From: Candidatus Nomurabacteria bacterium
GTDB lineage: Bacteria > Patescibacteriota > Minisyncoccia > Phycocordibacterales > UBA9973
Reading direction: 5' to 3'
Assembly (NCBI GenBank): GCA_943356675.1
Contig: CALRFQ010000001.1
Span: forward strand, 4,147-68,146
Length of the DNA: 64,000 bases
Under the pieces are notes generated by a model. It ran no database searches. It worked only from the letters and a program-made list of their open reading frames with translations, and was not told the origin of the DNA. Of this stretch, positions 2,909 through 63,757 are shown piece by piece. Each line of letters opens with the position of its first letter. Position 1 is the stretch's first letter. The translations under genes and the position numbers were made by a program.

Positions 2909-3523
2909 ATGGAAAATGAACCTCATTTCAATCTTATGTCTGCTGAGACATCACCTCAATCTGGTTATTACTTTTCTTCACAAAATGGTGCTATTAAAAG
3001 CTCAATATTCCACTGTAAAAAAGATGGGTTTGAGATTTTTAAAAAATTTTGTGATGAAAATAGCCTAACGCCTCAGACTCAATTACATCTCTTGCATAAG
3101 CTTATGAGCAGAAAGATGTGTAATACTATCGCGGAAGTTGATAGTAATTTTTATCTGGATCGTGAAGCTGAGAATGACTTTATTCTTGATATCACAGAGT
3201 ACTATAGTAGAGTGGAAGGTGCCATTGAATTCGCTACTAAGGAGTACTCTACAATGCTTAAAGAAGGTAAAAACCTGTGCATTAAGAAAGTTGACCTTTA
3301 CTTCAAGGATTTAAGTCACGAGGGTGAAGGTATGATTACCGAGATTCGTGAATTTAAATCGAAAGAGCAATTCCTACATTGGCTATCATCTCCTGAAGCG
3401 GTGAATAAGATTTCATTCGATGACAGAAAAAAGCTTGGGAAGATGATTCGGAATTCAGCTATCGAGGAATTTTCTAACGAAGAAGAAATCCCCTCATTTT
3501 TACCCAATGTTGTTGGAAGTTAG
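2909..3523 (+). CDS. hypothetical protein
   Basis: 204-aa ORF on the opposite strand from its neighbours, followed by a bidirectional terminator; no recognisable motif. Confidence 0.45.
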   Translation: MENEPHFNLMSAETSPQSGYYFSSQNGAIKSSIFHCKKDGFEIFKKFCDENSLTPQTQLHLLHKLMSRKMCNTIAEVDSNFYLDREAENDFILDITEYYSRVEGAIEFATKEYSTMLKEGKNLCIKKVDLYFKDLSHEGEGMITEIREFKSKEQFLHWLSSPEAVNKISFDDRKKLGKMIRNSAIEEFSNEEEIPSFLPNVVGS

Positions 3524-5869: not shown

Positions 5870-6796
5870 TTAACTTACACTTGCCATACCGGCACTAATT
5901 TCTGATATCTCCTGCGTGATCGACGCTTGGCGGGCTTTGTTGAATGCTAAGGTGAGGTCGTCTATCATTTCTCCTGCGGCTTCCGAGGCGTTCTTCATGG
6001 CTACCATTCGGGACGATTGTTCAGAAGCATTTGATTCAAGGAGCATTTGATAAATCTGCATTCGGGATAATTTCTCAGCTAAGCTTCCGATGAGTGCCTC
6101 TTGGTCGCCTTCGAAGGTGTAATCCGTTTTCCCTCTCTGGATAGAGGTCGAACCTCTATCTTCAGATAGAGGTTCGACCTCTATCTCTTCCACCAATTCT
6201 TTAATTTGCTCTTTTGATATTGGTAGGATTTGTTTGATATTTGGCTTTTGTGATAGAGCGGAAACGAAGTCGGTGTATGCTATTAAAATTTTATCGTATT
6301 TATTTTCTTTGTATTGGTCTACTACGAATTTCGATATCGGGACCACATCATTTAGATTTATATTGTCCGGCAATTCGGTGAATGTAGCAATGATATTCTT
6401 CCCTATTCTTCTCATTGCTGTGTCACCTTTCTTTCCGACTGTGACAAAATCAATTTTTGCATTATTTAAATTTACATCTGATGTTTTAAGGAGTGCCAAA
6501 ACCTTTTTTGTTACTTGCGCATTGTATGCTCCACAAAGTCCGCGGTTTGAAGTGATGAGGACAAGGAGCACATTTTTTACTTCGCGTTGAACGAATAGTG
6601 GATGTGTAATTTCCTGTGTACTATTTGCAATAGAAGTAAGAATCTCCCAAGAGTATCCAGCATATAGGCGGGATGCAAGTGTGGAAGAAACCGCGCGCTT
6701 CATCTTGGAAGCCGCCACGAGCTCCATAGCTTTCGTGATCTTTTTCGTGTTCTTCACACTCTTTATTCTTCTTTTGATTTCTTTTGTTCCTGCCAT
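5870..6796 (-). CDS. atpG: F0F1 ATP synthase gamma subunit (contains in-frame palindromic insertion)
   Basis: 308 aa; MAGTKEIKRRIKSVKNTKKITKAMELVAASKMKRA N-terminus and C-terminal SRMVAMKNASEAAGEMIDDLTLAFNKARQASITQEISEI. Confidence 0.9.
   Translation of the reverse strand: MAGTKEIKRRIKSVKNTKKITKAMELVAASKMKRAVSSTLASRLYAGYSWEILTSIANSTQEITHPLFVQREVKNVLLVLITSNRGLCGAYNAQVTKKVLALLKTSDVNLNNAKIDFVTVGKKGDTAMRRIGKNIIATFTELPDNINLNDVVPISKFVVDQYKENKYDKILIAYTDFVSALSQKPNIKQILPISKEQIKELVEEIEVEPLSEDRGSTSIQRGKTDYTFEGDQEALIGSLAEKLSRMQIYQMLLESNASEQSSRMVAMKNASEAAGEMIDDLTLAFNKARQASITQEISEISAGMASVS
6140..6185. repeat. 46-bp perfect palindromic unit (21 nt, TTCA, reverse complement of the 21 nt) in-frame inside atpG
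   Basis: GATAGAGGTCGAACCTCTATC TTCA GATAGAGGTTCGACCTCTATC. Confidence 0.8.
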
Positions 6797-21571: not shown

Positions 21572-22448
21572 CTAGTTTGTAAAATGTTTTAAGTTCTAGG
21601 AGTGCGACTTCTGTTTGCTTATCTTTAGCGACTTTATCTGTCGGTCCAGATCCTGGAGGATTCCCATGCCAACGATAATCGTATTCAAATGGTGTGACAC
21701 CTTTACTTGCGATTGTGCGTGCAATGATACATGAAGGCTTGTCTGGAATAGCTTTTGCGCGGTTTATTGCATTGTTTATATCTTCTACATTGTGCCCATC
21801 TATTTCTTCTGCATGCCAGCCGAATTCCTCATACTTCTTCGCCATGTCACCAAGGGGGAGTACGTCTTCAGTATTTCCATCAATCTGGATATGGTTGCGG
21901 TCAACTATAGCAATTAAGTTTCCTAATTTTTCTTTACCAGCGAGGAGAACTGCTTCCCATATATTGCCTTCATCATGCTCACCGTCTCCCATCACGCAGT
22001 AGAAGAACTTGCCAGAATTTCTGCCATGATCCATATTCTCAGCGATAGCCATACCGACTGCTTGTGAGAGTCCAGAACCAAGTGGCCCTGAAGAAGTCTC
22101 TACCATTGGTAGGAATTCGCGGTGAGGGTGGCCTTGTAGTCTTGATCCTAATTTTCTGAGAGTTAATAGTTCTTCAACAGGAAAATATCCAGAGTGCGCC
22201 ATTGCAGCATACATAACAGGGCAAATGTGGCCTGCGGAAAGTATAAAGCGATCACGACCCTCCCAGAAAGGCTCCGATGGATTGTGATTTAATTGATGAA
22301 AATAAAGCACAGCAAATACATCTGCCATATCAAGCGGTCCGGCAGTGTGGCCACTCTTCGCCTCTGTAAGCATTTCAATGATACTGATGCGGATTTTTGT
22401 CGCTAGTAATTTGAGTGTTTTGATTTTTTCGTCTGTAAGATTTTCCAT
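21555..22448 (-). CDS. transketolase, N-terminal subunit (TPP-binding)
   Basis: 297 aa; GHxxxxL...GDG(E)xxEG TPP-binding motif (VMGDGEHDEGNIWEA). Confidence 0.85.
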   Translation of the reverse strand: MENLTDEKIKTLKLLATKIRISIIEMLTEAKSGHTAGPLDMADVFAVLYFHQLNHNPSEPFWEGRDRFILSAGHICPVMYAAMAHSGYFPVEELLTLRKLGSRLQGHPHREFLPMVETSSGPLGSGLSQAVGMAIAENMDHGRNSGKFFYCVMGDGEHDEGNIWEAVLLAGKEKLGNLIAIVDRNHIQIDGNTEDVLPLGDMAKKYEEFGWHAEEIDGHNVEDINNAINRAKAIPDKPSCIIARTIASKGVTPFEYDYRWHGNPPGSGPTDKVAKDKQTEVALLELKTFYKLVEEGK

Positions 22449-22557
22449 CCCGTTAGAAGCAGATCGCGATCACTCGCTTCTTACTTGTTAAGTTATTAAT
22501 ATTTATTATATTTGTTTTCATGTTGTTTAATTTCGCGATCGCGGCTTCTAACGGGAT
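22447..22557. repeat. 111-bp intercistronic inverted-repeat element, family A copy 1 (rpe / tkt)
   Basis: Terminal IRs ATCCCGTTAGAAGC (22447..22460) and GCTTCTAACGGGAT (22544..22557), AT-rich centre. One arm contains the rpe stop codon and the other ends in the AT of the tkt start codon. 46 nt are identical to copy 2. Confidence 0.8.
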
Positions 22558-29607: not shown

Positions 29608-30657
29608 TTAAAAAGATAGTGCGATTATTACACCAAGACTTGTGGTGATAATACTGACGACCCAGTAACGCATTGTTACTTTATATTTTGGCCATCCTAG
29701 AGCCTCGAAGTGATGATGCAGTGGTGCTACAAGGAAAACTTTCTTCCCATTACGAAACTTTCTTGAAAGCATTTGAATAATACTAGATAGTGATGTGATA
29801 AATAGTGGGAATGCAATTATTGGTAGTAGAAGTACTGTGTTTGTAAGGAATGCAATCACGGAAATAGTCACAGTAAGGCCAATCATTCCGGTCTCACCCA
29901 TATAGAATCTCGCAGGAGGAATATTGAACCATAGGAATGCGAGTATTCCTGAAGCCACAACTGCACAGAAAGCAGATAGGTCATACTGACCATTTCCAAA
30001 TGCAATCACAGCGTAACCCGCGAATATGGAAGCAAGCACTCCACCTGAGAGGCCGTCGATTCCGTCAATCACACTCGATGAGAATACAGCAAGCATAATG
30101 ATTATAAAAAATGGCAAGAATAAAATGCCAAGAGTGAAAAATCCAAATCCTGGCACAAACACATAATCAATTCCTAGTTTTGAGTAGAACCACCAACCGA
30201 TAATTATTCCGAGCGATACTATGATTCCAATTTTGAGCCAACGAAGGAACATTGGGTCATTTGAAAATCTTCCAGTTGCAAAAATTTGAATAAAATCATC
30301 ACCGAGCCCTATAAGCGATGCAATGATGAGAGTGAAAAATGGAAGTAAGGTTTCTTTACGAGAAATAAAGTTCAAATTATTCTCAACAGAGCTTCCCCAA
30401 AAAATACCTATAATCCAAATCAATAGTAGTGAAAAAATTACTGAAATCCAAACAATCATACCACCAACTCTAGGTGTATGAAGCTCACTATTCTCATCGT
30501 GAATAGCGTGGAATGCTGGCTGAGTGCCAGTACTAGCCCTCGATACTCTACGCCAGAGCTTGTATTTATAAAAGTAGTGTGTGAATACTGGTGTAAGAGA
30601 AATGCCAGACACGAAGCACAAAATAACCGGCACTAAAATTTTTATTGCATTACTCAT
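29608..30657 (-). CDS. mraY: phospho-N-acetylmuramoyl-pentapeptide transferase
   Basis: 349 aa polytopic; HTPRVGGM and DGIDGLSGG motifs. Confidence 0.8.
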   Translation of the reverse strand: MSNAIKILVPVILCFVSGISLTPVFTHYFYKYKLWRRVSRASTGTQPAFHAIHDENSELHTPRVGGMIVWISVIFSLLLIWIIGIFWGSSVENNLNFISRKETLLPFFTLIIASLIGLGDDFIQIFATGRFSNDPMFLRWLKIGIIVSLGIIIGWWFYSKLGIDYVFVPGFGFFTLGILFLPFFIIIMLAVFSSSVIDGIDGLSGGVLASIFAGYAVIAFGNGQYDLSAFCAVVASGILAFLWFNIPPARFYMGETGMIGLTVTISVIAFLTNTVLLLPIIAFPLFITSLSSIIQMLSRKFRNGKKVFLVAPLHHHFEALGWPKYKVTMRYWVVSIITTSLGVIIALSF

Positions 30658-31210
30658 TGATATTATTTTCTTGATTTGTAATTGCTTTCTCGAGCTCTTC
30701 CACTACTTCTTTGTATTTAGGAAGCATGGTGATGTCGCTGACTCCCATAAATAGAAGTAAATCAATTGTAGGTGTGTATATAAATCTACGAGAGTCGGTA
30801 GCGTCTACCTTTTTATCAATTAATCCGCGTATGAGTAAGTTGCGGAGAATAAAACTAGAATTAACACCACGAATATAATCAATTTCATTTCTTGTTACTC
30901 CATTCTTATCAGGACCATTTTTATATAAAATAATTGAGAGTGTTTCAAGTGTTGCCTTCGATAATTCTTTAGTAATTTCATCTTTCCTCAATTTCTCAAG
31001 GAAAATACTTGCCTCTTTATTTGTGCCTAGAGTTACTTCGTTCTCAGTTTTAATTATTGTAAGACCCGTGCCTTCCTTCTTGGTACTAAGTGTATCAAGA
31101 GAAGCTACTACTTCTTCAATACTTACTTCCAAAATCTCTGCAATCTTTTTGATTGCAACTGGTTCACCTTTAAAGAAAAGTAATGCTTCAATTTTTGCGT
31201 CTAGTTCCAT
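30650..31210 (-). CDS. scpB: segregation and condensation protein B
   Basis: 186 aa; tandem winged-helix pattern, ALLFFKGEPVAIKKIAE. Confidence 0.8.
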   Translation of the reverse strand: MELDAKIEALLFFKGEPVAIKKIAEILEVSIEEVVASLDTLSTKKEGTGLTIIKTENEVTLGTNKEASIFLEKLRKDEITKELSKATLETLSIILYKNGPDKNGVTRNEIDYIRGVNSSFILRNLLIRGLIDKKVDATDSRRFIYTPTIDLLLFMGVSDITMLPKYKEVVEELEKAITNQENNINE

Positions 31211-31319
31211 CCCGTTAGAAGCAGATCGCGATCACTCGCTTCTTACTTATTAAACTATTAATTTTAATTTTATAAATTTTCATCATGTGTGTTTACGTGA
31301 TCGTGGCTTCTAATGGGAT
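31209..31319. repeat. 111-bp intercistronic inverted-repeat element, family A copy 2 (scpA / scpB)
   Basis: ATCCCGTTAGAAGC at 31209..31222 and GCTTCTAATGGGAT at 31306..31319. Positions 31205..31250 are identical to 22443..22488. The distal arm lies inside the scpA 3' coding end. Confidence 0.8.
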
Positions 31320-32082
31320 CCATACCTGTCATATTAATATCTTCAAAATTACTATTTTGAACAACATCAATTATTCCCTCTCTGACTAATTCTAGCATAG
31401 CAAGGAATGAAACAATAACATTCACTCTAACTTCCCTCTCACTACTATCAGGGCTACTCATTGAAAAGTCCTTAAACGACATATTTAATGATTTTTGAAT
31501 TCTGTTTGTAAGACGGTCTATCATTTCCTCAATATTTATGACAGTTTTTACTTCTACTTCTGGCAGTGGTATAGCTTTCTTCGGTAAACTTATAAGTACA
31601 TCATTTATGGCATTACTTAGCGTCTCAACCGTCAGAATTTGGTCTGGGCTAAAGATTACATTGTCCCACTTTCGCTCTGGTGCTGAGAAAATTATTTTTG
31701 TACCGAAATTACTCTTGATATCAACGCTAGCATTTTTAATGATTTGATAGAGTCTTAGTCTTGATTCAAGATCTTCAATTTTATCTTCTTCATCGTCTGT
31801 GAGTTCTAGGTTTGGAAGTAGTGATTTGGATTTGATCAGTATGAGTGTTGCGGCGATAACAATAAAGTAAGATATGTCGTGAATTTTTTTGTCGATAGAA
31901 ACATCTTCGGAATTATTACTCTGAAGACTTTTAATATATGAAATATATTCACTTGTAACTTCAGCAAGAGAGATTTCGTTGACAAATAACTTCCTACTTT
32001 CGATGAGTGAGAGAAGCAGCTCAAGTGGCCCCTCGAATGAGCCAGACTTAACTTTATATGTTTGTATAGTATTCTCTTCCAT
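31270..32082 (-). CDS. scpA: segregation and condensation protein A
   Basis: 270 aa; FEGPLELLLSLI motif; C-terminal 16 aa are encoded by the repeat arm. Confidence 0.8.
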   Translation of the reverse strand: MEENTIQTYKVKSGSFEGPLELLLSLIESRKLFVNEISLAEVTSEYISYIKSLQSNNSEDVSIDKKIHDISYFIVIAATLILIKSKSLLPNLELTDDEEDKIEDLESRLRLYQIIKNASVDIKSNFGTKIIFSAPERKWDNVIFSPDQILTVETLSNAINDVLISLPKKAIPLPEVEVKTVINIEEMIDRLTNRIQKSLNMSFKDFSMSSPDSSEREVRVNVIVSFLAMLELVREGIIDVVQNSNFEDINMTGMDPIRSHDHVNTHDENL

Positions 32083-36168: not shown

Positions 36169-36287
36169 TCCCGTTAGAGATGTGCTGTTCATATGTTTGT
36201 TAAATGTTAAATATAGATTATAGTGTATATATTAATTATTAGTTAATAAGAAACGGAAGTCTAAAGACTTCCTATCTCTAACGGGAT
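36169..36287. repeat. 119-bp intercistronic inverted-repeat element, family A copy 3 (dnaB / recR)
   Basis: TCCCGTTAGAGAT at 36169..36181 and ATCTCTAACGGGAT at 36274..36287 ending in the AT of the recR ATG. Inner hairpin GGAAGTC-TAAA-GACTTCC. Interior carries TTGTTA-N16-TATAGT. Confidence 0.8.
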
Positions 36288-36906
36288 GGACCCGATAAAT
36301 ATTCTCGCAGAAAAATTTAAGGAATTCCCAGGTATTGGTGAACGCCAAGCAAAGCGTTTCGTGTATTTTCTGCTTCATAAAAATCCTAGCTTCGTAAAAA
36401 TACTCGGCGAGGCAATCATTTCTATTAAAAGCCAGATTGCCGAGTGTGAATCTTGCCACATATTCTTTCAAATAAAACCTCATCAGGATAAGCTCTGTGA
36501 GACTTGCGCAAATCCTCAAACTGATCAATCTTCCCTACTTATCGTCGAGAAGGATGCAGATATGGAGACCATAAAGCGCACGAAGACATATAAAGGATTA
36601 TATTTTGTACTTGGTGGTCTTGTACCTATAGTGACTAAGGATACTCCTACTTTTGTTCGCACAAACGAACTTCAAGCTGTTGTAAAAGACCGTATTAAGA
36701 ATAAAGTTCTAAAGGAAATTATATTAGGTCTTTCTATTAATCCTCACGGTGAACATACAGATTTATATCTACGTGAATTACTCCACCCACTTATAGAAAA
36801 CACAAATGTTAGAATTGTATCTTTAGGTAAAGGCCTCTCCACAGGCACTGAGCTCGAATACTCCGACTCCGAAACTATCAAAAACGCTCTCAAAAACCGC
36901 GGCTAA
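36286..36906 (+). CDS. recR: recombination protein RecR
   Basis: 206 aa; HhH FPGIGERQAKR, C4 zinc finger CESCH...CETC, Toprim LIVEKDADME. Confidence 0.85.
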   Translation: MDPINILAEKFKEFPGIGERQAKRFVYFLLHKNPSFVKILGEAIISIKSQIAECESCHIFFQIKPHQDKLCETCANPQTDQSSLLIVEKDADMETIKRTKTYKGLYFVLGGLVPIVTKDTPTFVRTNELQAVVKDRIKNKVLKEIILGLSINPHGEHTDLYLRELLHPLIENTNVRIVSLGKGLSTGTELEYSDSETIKNALKNRG

Positions 36907-36910
36907 TCCC

Positions 36911-36930
36911 CGCCTAGGTCGGACCTAGGC
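36911..36930. repeat. GC-rich palindromic hairpin CGCCTAGGTC-G-GACCTAGGC (family B copy 1) right after the recR stop
   Basis: 9-10-bp perfect arms; near-identical copy at 47446..47466. Confidence 0.7.
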
Positions 36931-47348: not shown

Positions 47349-47445
47349 AAATATATTGGTTTTTGATTTTAGAACTATAATATACTATTCTCACCAAAAC
47401 ACAATATGTGGATAAAGTAAAACACCCTTTCGGGTGCCTTATCTC

Positions 47446-47466
47446 CGCCTAGGTCGGACCTAGGCG
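47446..47466. repeat. GC-rich palindromic hairpin CGCCTAGGTC-G-GACCTAGGCG (family B copy 2) right after the dnaJ stop
   Basis: Perfect 10-bp arms; followed on the minus strand by a GCACCC-GAAA-GGGTG-TTTT terminator (47411..47436). Confidence 0.7.
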
Positions 47467-50972: not shown

Positions 50973-51536
50973 ATGTGTATGTCAAATAAGAGTGATAATT
51001 CTAAGAAAATCATTAAAATACTTAGCCAAAAGCCAGCTGTTGCAGTGAGTGAAATTACAAAGAGTCTGTCCCAGGAAATTGCGCAAGAACAGTTCTTGCG
51101 CCAAAGGAAGAATTCGTATGCAATAACTCGTTCAATAAAAGGCCTAGAAGAGGCAGGATTGATAGAGAATATATCATCAGGCCAAGGATTCTTCGCTCGC
51201 CTCACAAAGGAAGGCAAGAAAAAGGCTATGAGCATTAAGCTTGAGAGCGAGGATAGCCTCGTAAATACTACTTGGGACGGATACTGGCGTGTGATACTCC
51301 TAGACCTCCCAGAAAGTCGTAAGAGTGAGCGTGAATCTCTCCGCTACCTACTCAAGAAAGCCGGCTTCGTGTGCCTAAAGAATTCTGCATGGATCTCCCC
51401 TTACCCATTTGAGCACCTATTCACAAATATTAAAAAAGATCTCGGCCTTACAACCGAGCTTATGATACTAGTCACTCGCCATGTAGACGAAATGACGGAA
51501 TCTTCCCTCTTTGATCTCTTTGGATTTCATAAATAA
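50973..51536 (+). CDS. PaaX-family transcriptional regulator (wHTH + PaaX C-terminal domain)
   Basis: 187 aa; WDGYWRVILLDLPESRKSERESLRYLLKKAGFVCLKNSAWISP matches the PaaX-family core W.G.W..v.f..pe..r..R..lr..L...GF..l...vWv.P. Confidence 0.55.
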   Translation: MCMSNKSDNSKKIIKILSQKPAVAVSEITKSLSQEIAQEQFLRQRKNSYAITRSIKGLEEAGLIENISSGQGFFARLTKEGKKKAMSIKLESEDSLVNTTWDGYWRVILLDLPESRKSERESLRYLLKKAGFVCLKNSAWISPYPFEHLFTNIKKDLGLTTELMILVTRHVDEMTESSLFDLFGFHK

Positions 51537-63175: not shown

Positions 63176-63757
63176 ATGGGACGAGCTAATATACTATTTT
63201 CCATATTCCTATTCATTATCTTAATAATTGGCGCAAGAACAGTTCTTGCGCAAACTTATGATTCAAAATCATTTACAGGCACCTGGATACGAGTATCTAC
63301 CACTGGTTCCAAATTATATTTAATGAAAGATCAAAAAGTTGTTAGAACTTATCCTATTTCAATTTCTAAACACGGCATAGGTAACATTTCTGGCAGTAAT
63401 AAAACTCCACTTGGGTTACACGAGATTAAAAAGAAAATTGGTAGCAAATTACCAATCAATTCTATAATCAAGGGTGGTGTCTCAACTGGTAAGACTGCTA
63501 AAATTATAAGTGAACCGATATCAGTAAACACCGACTTAGTCACTACCAGAGTTATGTGGCTCTCAGGGCTTGAACCTGGAAAAAATAAAGGTGGAAAGGT
63601 AGATAGCTACAATCGCTTCATATACATTCACGGCACACCAGAAGAAGGCCTCATAGGCCAGCCAGCATCCCACGGTTGTATCCGAATGTACAACAAGGAT
63701 GTAATTGAACTCTTCAACCTCGTCTCTATAAATACAAAAGTTTTAATTGAAAAATAA
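63176..63757 (+). CDS. L,D-transpeptidase (YkuD domain) with signal peptide
   Basis: 193 aa; catalytic HGT...SHGCIRM motif. Confidence 0.75.
   Translation: MGRANILFSIFLFIILIIGARTVLAQTYDSKSFTGTWIRVSTTGSKLYLMKDQKVVRTYPISISKHGIGNISGSNKTPLGLHEIKKKIGSKLPINSIIKGGVSTGKTAKIISEPISVNTDLVTTRVMWLSGLEPGKNKGGKVDSYNRFIYIHGTPEEGLIGQPASHGCIRMYNKDVIELFNLVSINTKVLIEK

Follow-up and report, generated by a model that had tools for sequence, protein, structure and literature searches.

How does a short repeat come to lie between two genes in such a way that the first of them ends within it and the second begins on its last bases? This question is raised by a 111-nt inverted-repeat element at positions 31209-31319, minus strand, of a 64,000-nt stretch of Candidatus Nomurabacteria DNA (NCBI assembly GCA_943356675.1, contig CALRFQ010000001.1, positions 4,147 to 68,146; "the window" below denotes this whole stretch), where it overlaps the 3' end of an scpA-like gene and the start of an scpB-like gene. 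Our answer, to which we give a probability of about 0.7, is that the element is a non-autonomous, miniature member of a mobile family specific to the Patescibacteria (the Candidate Phyla Radiation, CPR), the full-length form of which codes for a GIY-YIG nuclease.

The element at scpA/scpB and its empty sites

The element at scpA/scpB, hereafter copy 2, consists of 14-nt terminal inverted repeats, a second GC-rich stem and an AT-rich centre (Table 1), and all the genes around it lie on the minus strand. Its 5' arm carries a single G-to-A change with respect to the family consensus and its inner stem has two mismatched positions (CGC-to-CAC changes); the 3' arm holds the TAA that closes an internal open reading frame (ORF), and the final AT of this arm opens the scpB ATG. 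That frame, of 23 codons, is the only one open in copy 2 and matches no protein family. The window contains exactly two occurrences of the 26-nt arm TCCCGTTAGAAGCAGATCGCGATCAC, at 22448 and 31210, and 100 shuffles contain none; the occurrence at 22448 belongs to a second element, copy 1. The terminal inverted repeat pairs at 14 of 14 positions in copy 1 and at 13 of 14 in copy 2, the arm of which reads GCTTCTAATGGGAT.

A preliminary description of this DNA had already recognised a 111-bp member of a repeat family here, of the same length as copy 1, and both its coordinates and its length were confirmed. The two copies are identical at 93 of 111 positions (84%), and a repeat finder pairs 22443-22557 with 31205-31319 (115 nt, 84% identity). 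Identity from the scpB-proximal end, which had been put at 46 nt, is unbroken in our alignment for 40 nt within the element, or for 44 nt with the flanking TTCC, all 18 differences falling in the distal 71 nt. The C-to-T transitions reported for the distal arm are real: three are found on the plus strand relative to copy 1, every one of them at a CpG. The distal arm is also, as had been read, the end of ScpA, since the ORF at 31270-32082 terminates with ...NMTGM-DPIRSHDHVNTHDENL, of which the last 16 codons and the stop are element sequence (31270-31319); and the element does provide the start of scpB, the A and the T of this ATG being its last two bases. Two broader claims fared less well. 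Capture of the element into coding sequence is correct in so far as it is translated as the ScpA tail, but its placement is not random, as it sits at the old scpB start, like most of the more than 100 members of the family at theirs; and the idea that copies diverge arm by arm does not describe the family, in which the gene-proximal ~40 nt are simply more conserved.

The same description had raised the concern that 31205..31250 might be a collapsed repeat. The exact 270-aa ScpA, including its element-derived tail, was found in at least eight contigs, drawn from assemblies made independently in ENA, NCBI and Logan; four of these contigs span scpA, element and scpB with the window sequence, and two others end inside or just past the element. 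As the same sequence recurs in independent assemblies, copy 2 is neither a collapsed repeat nor a mis-join. Elsewhere, short-read contigs of this organism and its relatives begin or end inside copies (L003 at 1-102 and 6084-6185, L004 at 1119-1220, and the ends of L137 and L138), and the family therefore fragments metagenome assemblies of these bacteria.

In the relative L001/L002 (92-94% DNA identity) the site is element-free: scpA ends with ...ATG AGT CAG GTT GAT AAT AAT CAA ACG AAT TAA, followed by TAT and the ATG of scpB. ScpA encoded at this empty site has 260 aa; the preliminary expectation that the protein would be shorter by about 15 aa where the element is absent thus holds for the direction but not for the amount, which is 10 aa. 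The anticipated absence of the element tail from element-free orthologues is borne out in those compared: in the closest of them (P0001, 97% aa identity) the protein finishes with ...EDINMSQVDNNQTN, and the tails of other ScpA relatives, past a conserved ...NFEDI(N/S)M core, are variable and unrelated. In a more distant ScpA (61% identity) the C-terminus is ...EVVMDPVRSRDREV, which comes from reading into a further element that lies at the scpB start there.

The junction in the window reads ...ATGACAGGTATGG / element / GGAACTAGAC, with ATGG on both sides. Compared with the empty allele, the window lacks 27 nt on the left, corresponding to the native 9-residue scpA tail, the stop and the spacer, and scpA consequently runs through the old scpB ATG (Met266) into the element. 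In our reading of the history of the locus, the element entered the scpB start, duplicating ATGG, and the adjacent 27 nt were then lost; scpA now stops inside the element and scpB starts at a rebuilt ATG. The site of copy 1 is empty in three relatives (L220, L221 and L222); the closest empty allele reads ...CAAAATTTATAATTAT/ATGGAAAATC, and in the window the element stands in place of 8 nt, ATAATTAT, the epimerase upstream ending with NLSR at the TAG within the 5' arm rather than with NL and its stop.

Two of the three C-to-T transitions of copy 2 are old, since they are present in the orthologous copy of L003, in which the gene-proximal ~40 nt are also identical. The window and L003 share, moreover, the CAC-GAT-CAC changes in the 5' arm.

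The short-form family and its target

Using the pattern ATCCCRTTAGAAGC-N68-98-GCTTCTAAYGGG, we scanned one genome per bacterial species and recovered at least 119 stretches; the matches listed come from about 94 species-representative assemblies, with several element loci per assembly, and nearly all of them are Patescibacteria by name (Paceibacteria, Nomura-, Kaiser-, Levy-, Moran-bacteria and similar). Copies were oriented by the asymmetry of their arms alone, that is, by the 4-nt unpaired AYCT on one side (ATCT in 55, ACCT in 43 and TCCT in 13 of 122 copies). In 106 of the 123 copies oriented in this way an ORF of at least 50 codons begins at the terminal AT plus G in the predicted direction, and in three in the opposite one. 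Among 144 copies the left flank ends with ATG in 103, GTG in 6 and TTG in 3, and the bases after this triplet recur on the right.

When the element is defined as TCCC...GGGA, the duplication is 4 nt long in 66 of 116 short copies, 3 nt in 15 and 5 nt in 7. It reads most often TGAA (36 copies), followed by TGGA (16), TGA (9) and TGAG (5), and in 84 of 88 it is preceded by A. With GTG to the left of the element, the right-hand triplet is ATG all the same, its A being contributed by the element. This is seen in L127 (2498-2504), L007 and L042 (reverse strand), in which GTG is kept on the left and a working ATG start lies to the right, so that a weak start codon is turned into ATG by the insertion. 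Two other boundaries were tried and rejected: ATCCC...GGGAT with a 2-nt duplication fits more poorly, the base before TCCC changing together with the fourth base of the right flank (the TGAG cases), and CCC...GGG with a 6-nt duplication does not fit the composition of the right flank.

Many genes with no relation to one another have the element at their starts, scpB, tkt, recR, rnhA and glycosyltransferases being among them. In 650 long ORFs that carry no element, RA comes after ATG in 36% and AA in 24%, and the sites therefore prefer sequence beyond being start codons. The upstream ORF enters the element in only 31 of 144 copies, and 16 of these 31 stop at the TAG of the repeat, like copy 1; a read-through as long as that of copy 2 is unusual in the family, but it recurs at the same gene, scpA. 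Copies that directly abut the 3' or 5' end of another copy also occur: short ones were observed in L024 (~6490) and L092 (~3415) and long ones in L172 (~400), L174 (~1277) and L183 (~1940), and in L119 (1286-1337) a 51-nt version reduced to the hairpin (TCCCGTTAGAGGTCGCGAGGG...CCCTCTACCTCTAACGGGA) is nested inside another element; it looks as though a rebuilt ATGAA site had been hit again.

Within the short copies, 58 of 114 distinct sequences contain an ATG frame of at least 16 codons (mode 23) that closes at the TAA of the 3' repeat (GCTTC TAA CGGG ATG), against 7.4 +/- 2.5 such frames, and 14 at most, in dinucleotide shuffles of the interior. In 76 of 115 copies an ORF ends at -7 or +1 relative to the host ATG. 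The small frame is not a remnant of the nuclease frame of the long form, as the two are read differently (TGC TTC TAA versus CTA ACG GGA TGA). The frame is kept open without conservation of its peptide, as would be expected if the act of translation matters, and its position suggests that it may relay ribosomes to the host gene, which without it would have its ATG at the base of a long stem and remote from any ribosome-binding site. At copy 2, a chain from scpA through the small frame to scpB, in place of the TAA-TAT-ATG coupling, is possible from the positions of the three frames.

An internal promoter was also considered and rejected, the single weak sigma-70-like match being no more than is found in shuffles. 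A frame-less subgroup (for example L051, L112, L122, L023 and L087; set L005-L123) has an interior of the form GTCGTT...TATAAT-like...GCAGA, lying ~30-45 nt before the host ATG, and judging from its layout this motif could be an outward-facing promoter. The GCAGR motif is biased in strand (30 sense versus 4 antisense) and does not co-vary with the unpaired AYCT. A third helix or pseudoknot between GCAGRT and the unpaired AYCT plus GC was dismissed, exact pairing being found in 6 of 114 copies (20 of 114 when G.U is allowed) and the variable positions being unassociated.

The nuclease-coding long form and the symmetry of the repeats

The long form of the family measures 274-286 nt and has the ends TCCCGTTAGA...TCTAACGGGA, near-identical to those of the short form, with the same target and orientation. 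Its full-length version, of ~277 nt, has perfect inverted repeats of 13 bp at its two ends, TCCCGTTAGAGAY...RTCTCTAACGGGA, and contains nothing but a 94-aa, single-domain GIY-YIG gene. In L034, for example, a 279-nt version reads ATGA/ATCCCGTTAGAGAC...GTCTCTAACGGGAT/GAAA and its gene (2980-3264) encodes a protein of 94 aa, MNPVRDDEYYYVYVLRS...KRFLSLTG, with a GIY-YIG catalytic domain (PF01541, E = 1.2e-16). The nuclease gene brings no start codon with it: its frame opens at the left, host-derived ATG (M-N-P-V-R-D...), the 5' repeat encodes its first residues and the 3' repeat its last ones, and its TGA shares bases with the rebuilt ATG at which the next gene starts (ATGA). According to the gene calls of two further examples, it overlaps each neighbour by 4 nt, the element there occupying and duplicating an ATGA or GTGA stop/start overlap.

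The proteins of the family have 93-95 aa, the catalytic domain covering residues 9-75, and carry no separate DNA-binding domain. A protein search gave 2296 homologue clusters; of the best 120, 77 begin with MNPVRD and 90 finish with FLSLTG. The catalytic residues Y13, Y24, G26, R32, H38, E58 and N84 are invariant in an alignment of 30 sequences, and the nearest solved relatives are UPF0213 proteins (1ZG2, E = 7e-10; 1YWL, E = 1e-4).

The association between gene and repeats was examined in 80 metagenome loci fetched by protein similarity alone, the repeats having no part in their selection: in 78 of the 80, a repeat pair lies 274-286 nt apart. A 4-nt duplication flanks 52 of 75 long copies (TGAA in 46), the preceding base being A 52 times, G 5 times and T 3 times, and an ATG ORF of at least 50 codons follows in 58 of the 75. 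Long and short forms share their first and last 10-11 nt, their target and their orientation. In both L034 and L048 the two forms are found within one 8-kb stretch, and the start of rnhA is occupied by the long form in L048 and by the short one in L034. The window itself holds a third element, the ends of which, TCCCGTTAGAGAT...ATCTCTAACGGGA (AGAGAT), are of the type of the nuclease-coding form; its last 19-24 nt are the 3' end of full-length GIY-YIG elements, with the nuclease frame still reading ...DFLSLTG, and its flanks are TTATGGC on the left and TGGACC on the right. The link to a GIY-YIG gene, the internal small frame and this third element, at 36169-36286, go beyond what the preliminary description contained.

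In descriptive terms the short element is a miniature inverted-repeat transposable element, or MITE, being short, multicopy and devoid of a transposase gene, with terminal inverted repeats, a duplication (copy 2) and presence/absence polymorphism. One could accordingly propose an ordinary MITE that a conventional transposase of the DDE type, encoded elsewhere, would move, with the GIY-YIG gene as only a passenger, or as an unrelated gene with the same ends. Such a proposal would cover the length of ~110 nt, the terminal repeats, the short direct duplication, the many copies and the empty sites in relatives, and it would sit well with the AGAAGC ends of the window copies, which at positions 11-13 resemble no long element seen. 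We nevertheless hold it to be improbable: the ~1.2 Mb of loci fetched showed no other gene between such ends; in 78 of 80 loci the interval from repeat to repeat is taken up entirely by the nuclease gene, which has the repeats as its first and last codons; and one would not expect the transposon to encode the termini of a passenger in thousands of clusters.

Across 76 long copies the 13 pairs of the repeats are 96-100% Watson-Crick, with only four G.T and four A.C, and compensatory changes are found at position 1 (TA 69, CG 6), position 9 (GC 72, AT 4), position 12 (AT 63, CG 8, GC 2) and position 13 (TA 41, CG 31). These changes alter both ends of the protein together, MNPVRA going with FLALTG and MNPVRG with FLPLTG, and selection therefore acts on nucleic-acid complementarity and not on the protein. 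In the short form the outer stem is near-invariant across the family and the inner stem co-varies (CGCGATC/GATCGCG, CGCGGTC/GACCGCG, CGCGGAC/GTCCGCG, CACGATC/GATCGTG), without favouring G.U (31) over A.C (46). A structure acting as RNA only is not supported, as G.U is in excess over A.C in neither form (31 versus 46 in the short, 4 versus 4 in the long). The repeats seem instead to be kept as a symmetry of the DNA, for example as a stem that would be recognised or cut as DNA.

The same pairing data bear on a host-serving structured RNA or operon punctuation, vertically inherited and not mobile (a stem for RNase III, an attenuator or a translation coupler). A long stem is strongly predicted on both strands, which fold far better than shuffled sequences (z-scores from -4.7 to -7.3); the genes on either side of the element are always co-directional and its own orientation is fixed; the small frame ends beside the downstream start; and CPR ribosomal RNA (rRNA) genes tolerate GIY-YIG-coding non-intron insertions (PMC11270868), as would suit removal of a stem at the RNA level. 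We regard this explanation as very improbable all the same, since sites are empty in close relatives, the start codon is flanked by the duplication, copies occur in tandem and nested and break assemblies, the downstream genes are functionally unrelated, and the lack of preference for G.U over A.C points to a selection that is not RNA-like. Furthermore, a search of the whole window against Rfam 15 found one tRNA only and nothing for the element, for which the best match of a permissive search, mir-989, scored 16.3 bits against a threshold of 59.

Mechanism, related systems and consequences

How the family moves can be proposed as follows. The 94-aa nuclease would move the long form and, in trans, the short forms, which would have lost the nuclease gene. 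Integration would occur at A/TGRA through a 4-bp staggered break or, as an alternative step, the nuclease would cut the base of the repeat stem; the host ATG is rebuilt by the right-hand duplicate and the terminal A of the element. A fixed stagger is favoured because the duplications peak at 4 nt and the variable bases match on both sides of each copy. The nuclease gene of the long form lies in the operon as a translationally coupled frame, and selection in gene-dense genomes would keep those insertions that lie at true start codons and leave the gene intact. The element itself is probably selfish and near-neutral rather than useful to the host.

Several observations weigh against reading copy 2 as a miniature mobilised by the nuclease. 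Both insertions in the window exceed a clean insertion, 27 nt and 8 nt of the left flank being missing; copy 1 has no flanking target duplication, and none is found in 22% of the short (26/116) and 19% of the long copies (14/75). The junction ATGACAGGTATGG plus element is common to the window and L003 (76-79% DNA identity) and not to L001 (92-94%), as compared over window 31320-31335, L001 1560-1600 and L003 6070-6100; simple vertical descent does not explain this sharing, for which flank co-conversion or local recombination is possible. Position 11 of the repeat is G in all 76 long elements (AGAGNN) and A in both 111-nt window copies (AGAAGC), and no long element with AGAAGC ends was found in ~0.9 Mb around short copies. 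There is no GIY-YIG gene of the family within the 64-kb window, and it is association that suggests that the nuclease mobilises both forms. As to the small frame, about one third of the short copies have none near the host ATG, and where present it shows no codon-position periodicity (146/163/132 differences) and the same ratio of synonymous to non-synonymous changes as shifted frames; selection on its peptide was rejected on these two grounds.

The lost left flanks, the roughly 20% of copies without a left duplicate and the junction shared with L003 leave room for a homing-like route, in which the nuclease would break an ATGRA start and repair would copy an existing element, ATGRA serving as microhomology and neighbouring sequence being sometimes co-converted or lost. 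GIY-YIG enzymes are indeed known as homing endonucleases (PMC2988022), left-flank DNA is lost at both window insertions relative to the empty alleles, the derived junction is shared with a distant and not with a close relative, as flank co-conversion would give, and the right flank ATGGAA is common to both 111-nt copies of the window. Such break repair is nonetheless unlikely in our opinion, if less so than the ordinary MITE: duplication length has a sharp peak at 4 nt, those positions of the duplication that vary (TGAG, TGGA, TGCA, TGTA) match left and right in each copy, as fits a fixed 4-nt stagger, classical homing needs long homologous flanks at one locus whereas the targets here are hundreds of unrelated genes, and perfect, co-varying inverted repeats have no role in homing.

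The family may even represent an undescribed class of bacterial transposon, with a 94-aa GIY-YIG gene as its sole gene, 13-bp repeats kept complementary as DNA, a 4-bp duplication at translation starts (A/TGRA, in many cases where stop and start overlap in the ATGA of an operon) and, across the Patescibacteria, numerous miniatures in which a short relay frame takes the place of the nuclease gene; we advance this tentatively, at rather less than even odds. Such a transposon would borrow the ribosome-binding site and start codon of the host and return ribosomes to it through the ATGA overlap. To our knowledge, no nuclease of the GIY-YIG type has been recognised as a bacterial transposase. In the literature searched (open-access papers and preprints) we found no description of the repeats, the start-codon rule or the miniature forms.

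The Correia elements of Neisseria and the ERIC/IRU elements of enterobacteria, both of them MITEs, resemble the short form in their size of ~100-150 nt, terminal inverted repeats, short duplication and many copies per genome, as well as in their location at gene boundaries, co-transcription with neighbours and long RNA/DNA stem. Known MITEs derive from insertion sequences with DDE transposases and typically duplicate TA or longer arbitrary sites; by contrast, the coding relative here is a GIY-YIG gene, the target is a start codon in A/TGRA, the orientation is fixed and the ATG is rebuilt. The IS200/IS605 elements with their miniature PATEs, and the REP/RAYT systems, all of them hairpin-dependent elements that move as single strands, have in common with the family a small enzyme of nuclease type, ends that the secondary structure of the DNA defines, a target that is short and specific, and many derivatives that are non-autonomous. 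Their enzymes, however, are of the HUH/Y1 type, each end has a separate hairpin and no target is duplicated, whereas the inverted repeats here run end to end. The palindromic elements of Rickettsia are likewise short, palindromic, selfish DNA of a reduced genome that is translated into host proteins; Ogata and colleagues reportedly found in 2000 that they insert in frame inside genes, adding internal peptide segments. Copy 2 lies instead between genes, its translated part being a by-product of the lost scpA stop, and its internal stops end scpA translation after 16 codons, which is not an in-frame internal insertion of the Rickettsia type. An integron attC site (RYYYAAC at the 5' end paired with GTTRRRY at the 3' end, in arrays of cassettes that lack promoters) was rejected, as the order is reversed here (GTTAGAA 5', TTCTAAC 3') and the neighbours are housekeeping genes.

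On the side of the nuclease, the stand-alone GIY-YIG proteins of the UPF0213/YhbQ group (PDB 1ZG2, BH0048, and 1YWL, EF2693) have the same size and the same single domain; we know of no description of them as mobile or bounded by inverted repeats. The seg genes of T4-like phages are free-standing genes for GIY-YIG homing endonucleases (PMC2988022) and, like the long form, are small, selfish GIY-YIG genes that lie between host genes without an intron or intein. Seg proteins differ in having an added DNA-binding domain and in homing to one cognate locus by recombination, and seg genes have no inverted repeats, target duplication or miniature derivatives, while the family protein has 94 aa and the catalytic domain only, is found at hundreds of different genes and borrows a host start codon. 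The long form thus shares with homing endonucleases the GIY-YIG domain, but neither the single cognate locus nor the separate DNA-binding domain. GIY-YIG-coding non-intron insertions, described as not looking like homing, are also scattered in CPR rRNA genes (PMC11270868); they belong to the same bacterial group and nuclease superfamily, and no inverted repeats, start-codon targeting or miniature forms are reported for them in that paper. Carriage by phages was rejected, since 2.9 million viral contigs (IMG/VR) contained neither of the two patterns, short or long, and the nuclease had no match in PHROGs. The element combines traits of MITEs and of selfish GIY-YIG genes, and there is a fair chance that it represents a new class.

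The genomes of Patescibacteria are among the smallest and most tightly packed known. If the reading given here is true, they hold an abundant mobile element built on a GIY-YIG nuclease, one that appears to solve the problem of landing harmlessly where there is almost no intergenic DNA, by landing on start codons and rebuilding them. Its practical consequences are C-terminal tails of upstream proteins that are changed (ScpA and ribulose-phosphate epimerase here), GTG and TTG starts that become ATG, metagenome assemblies that are broken at the copies, and the mis-annotation of start sites and gene ends, with many small 'MNPVRD...' proteins being read from an ATG that is borrowed from the host. 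Work on translation coupling would take an interest in so minimal a nuclease, of 94 aa and with a target that is short and defined, and in the relay frame that goes with it, and the nuclease is also a candidate for a compact DNA-cutting module.

Table 1. Positions in the window of the three short elements, of the parts of copy 2 and of the two genes that copy 2 joins
Feature	Position	Strand	Remarks
Short element, copy 2	31209..31319	-	111 nt; gene sense reads from 31319 down to 31209
5' terminal inverted-repeat arm	31306..31319	-	sense ATCCCATTAGAAGC; translated as ScpA residues (D)PIRS
Inner 7-bp stem, 5' half	31299..31305	-	sense CACGATC
Inner stem, 3' half	31227-31233	-	sense GATCGCG; part of 31223..31233
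Unpaired 4-nt ATCT after inner stem	31223-31226	-	asymmetry used as orientation marker
3' terminal inverted-repeat arm	31209..31222	-	sense GCTTCTAACGGGAT
Internal mini-ORF, copy 2	31215..31286	-	MMKIYKIKINSLISKKRVIAICF, then stop; start overlaps scpA end; TAA 4 nt before scpB ATG
Left ATGG duplicate	31320..31323	-	former scpB start codon plus G; now Met266 of ScpA
Right ATGG duplicate	31207..31210	-	present scpB start: AT from element, G from flank, plus G
scpA-like gene	31270..32082	-	270 aa; homologues match Pfam SMC_ScpA
scpB-like gene	30650..31210	-	186 aa; PF04079
Short element, copy 1	22447..22557	-	111 nt; between genes for ribulose-phosphate 3-epimerase and transketolase N-subunit
Mini-ORF, copy 1	22453-22521	-	MKTNIININNLTSKKRVIAICF, then stop
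Third short element	36169..36286	+	118 nt; between dnaB stop (36161) and recR ATG (36286)

Two other pairs of palindromes were observed in the window. A GC-rich palindrome, CCGCCTAGGTCGGACCTAGGC, is present in two copies (36903-36930 and 47438-47465) that are 93% identical over 28 nt; the first of them abuts the end of recR, and the pair may be a small repeat family or a shared terminator. Another palindrome, TTGCGCAAGAACAGTTCTTGCGC, also occurs twice (51076-51104 and 63226-63254), its copies being 90% identical.

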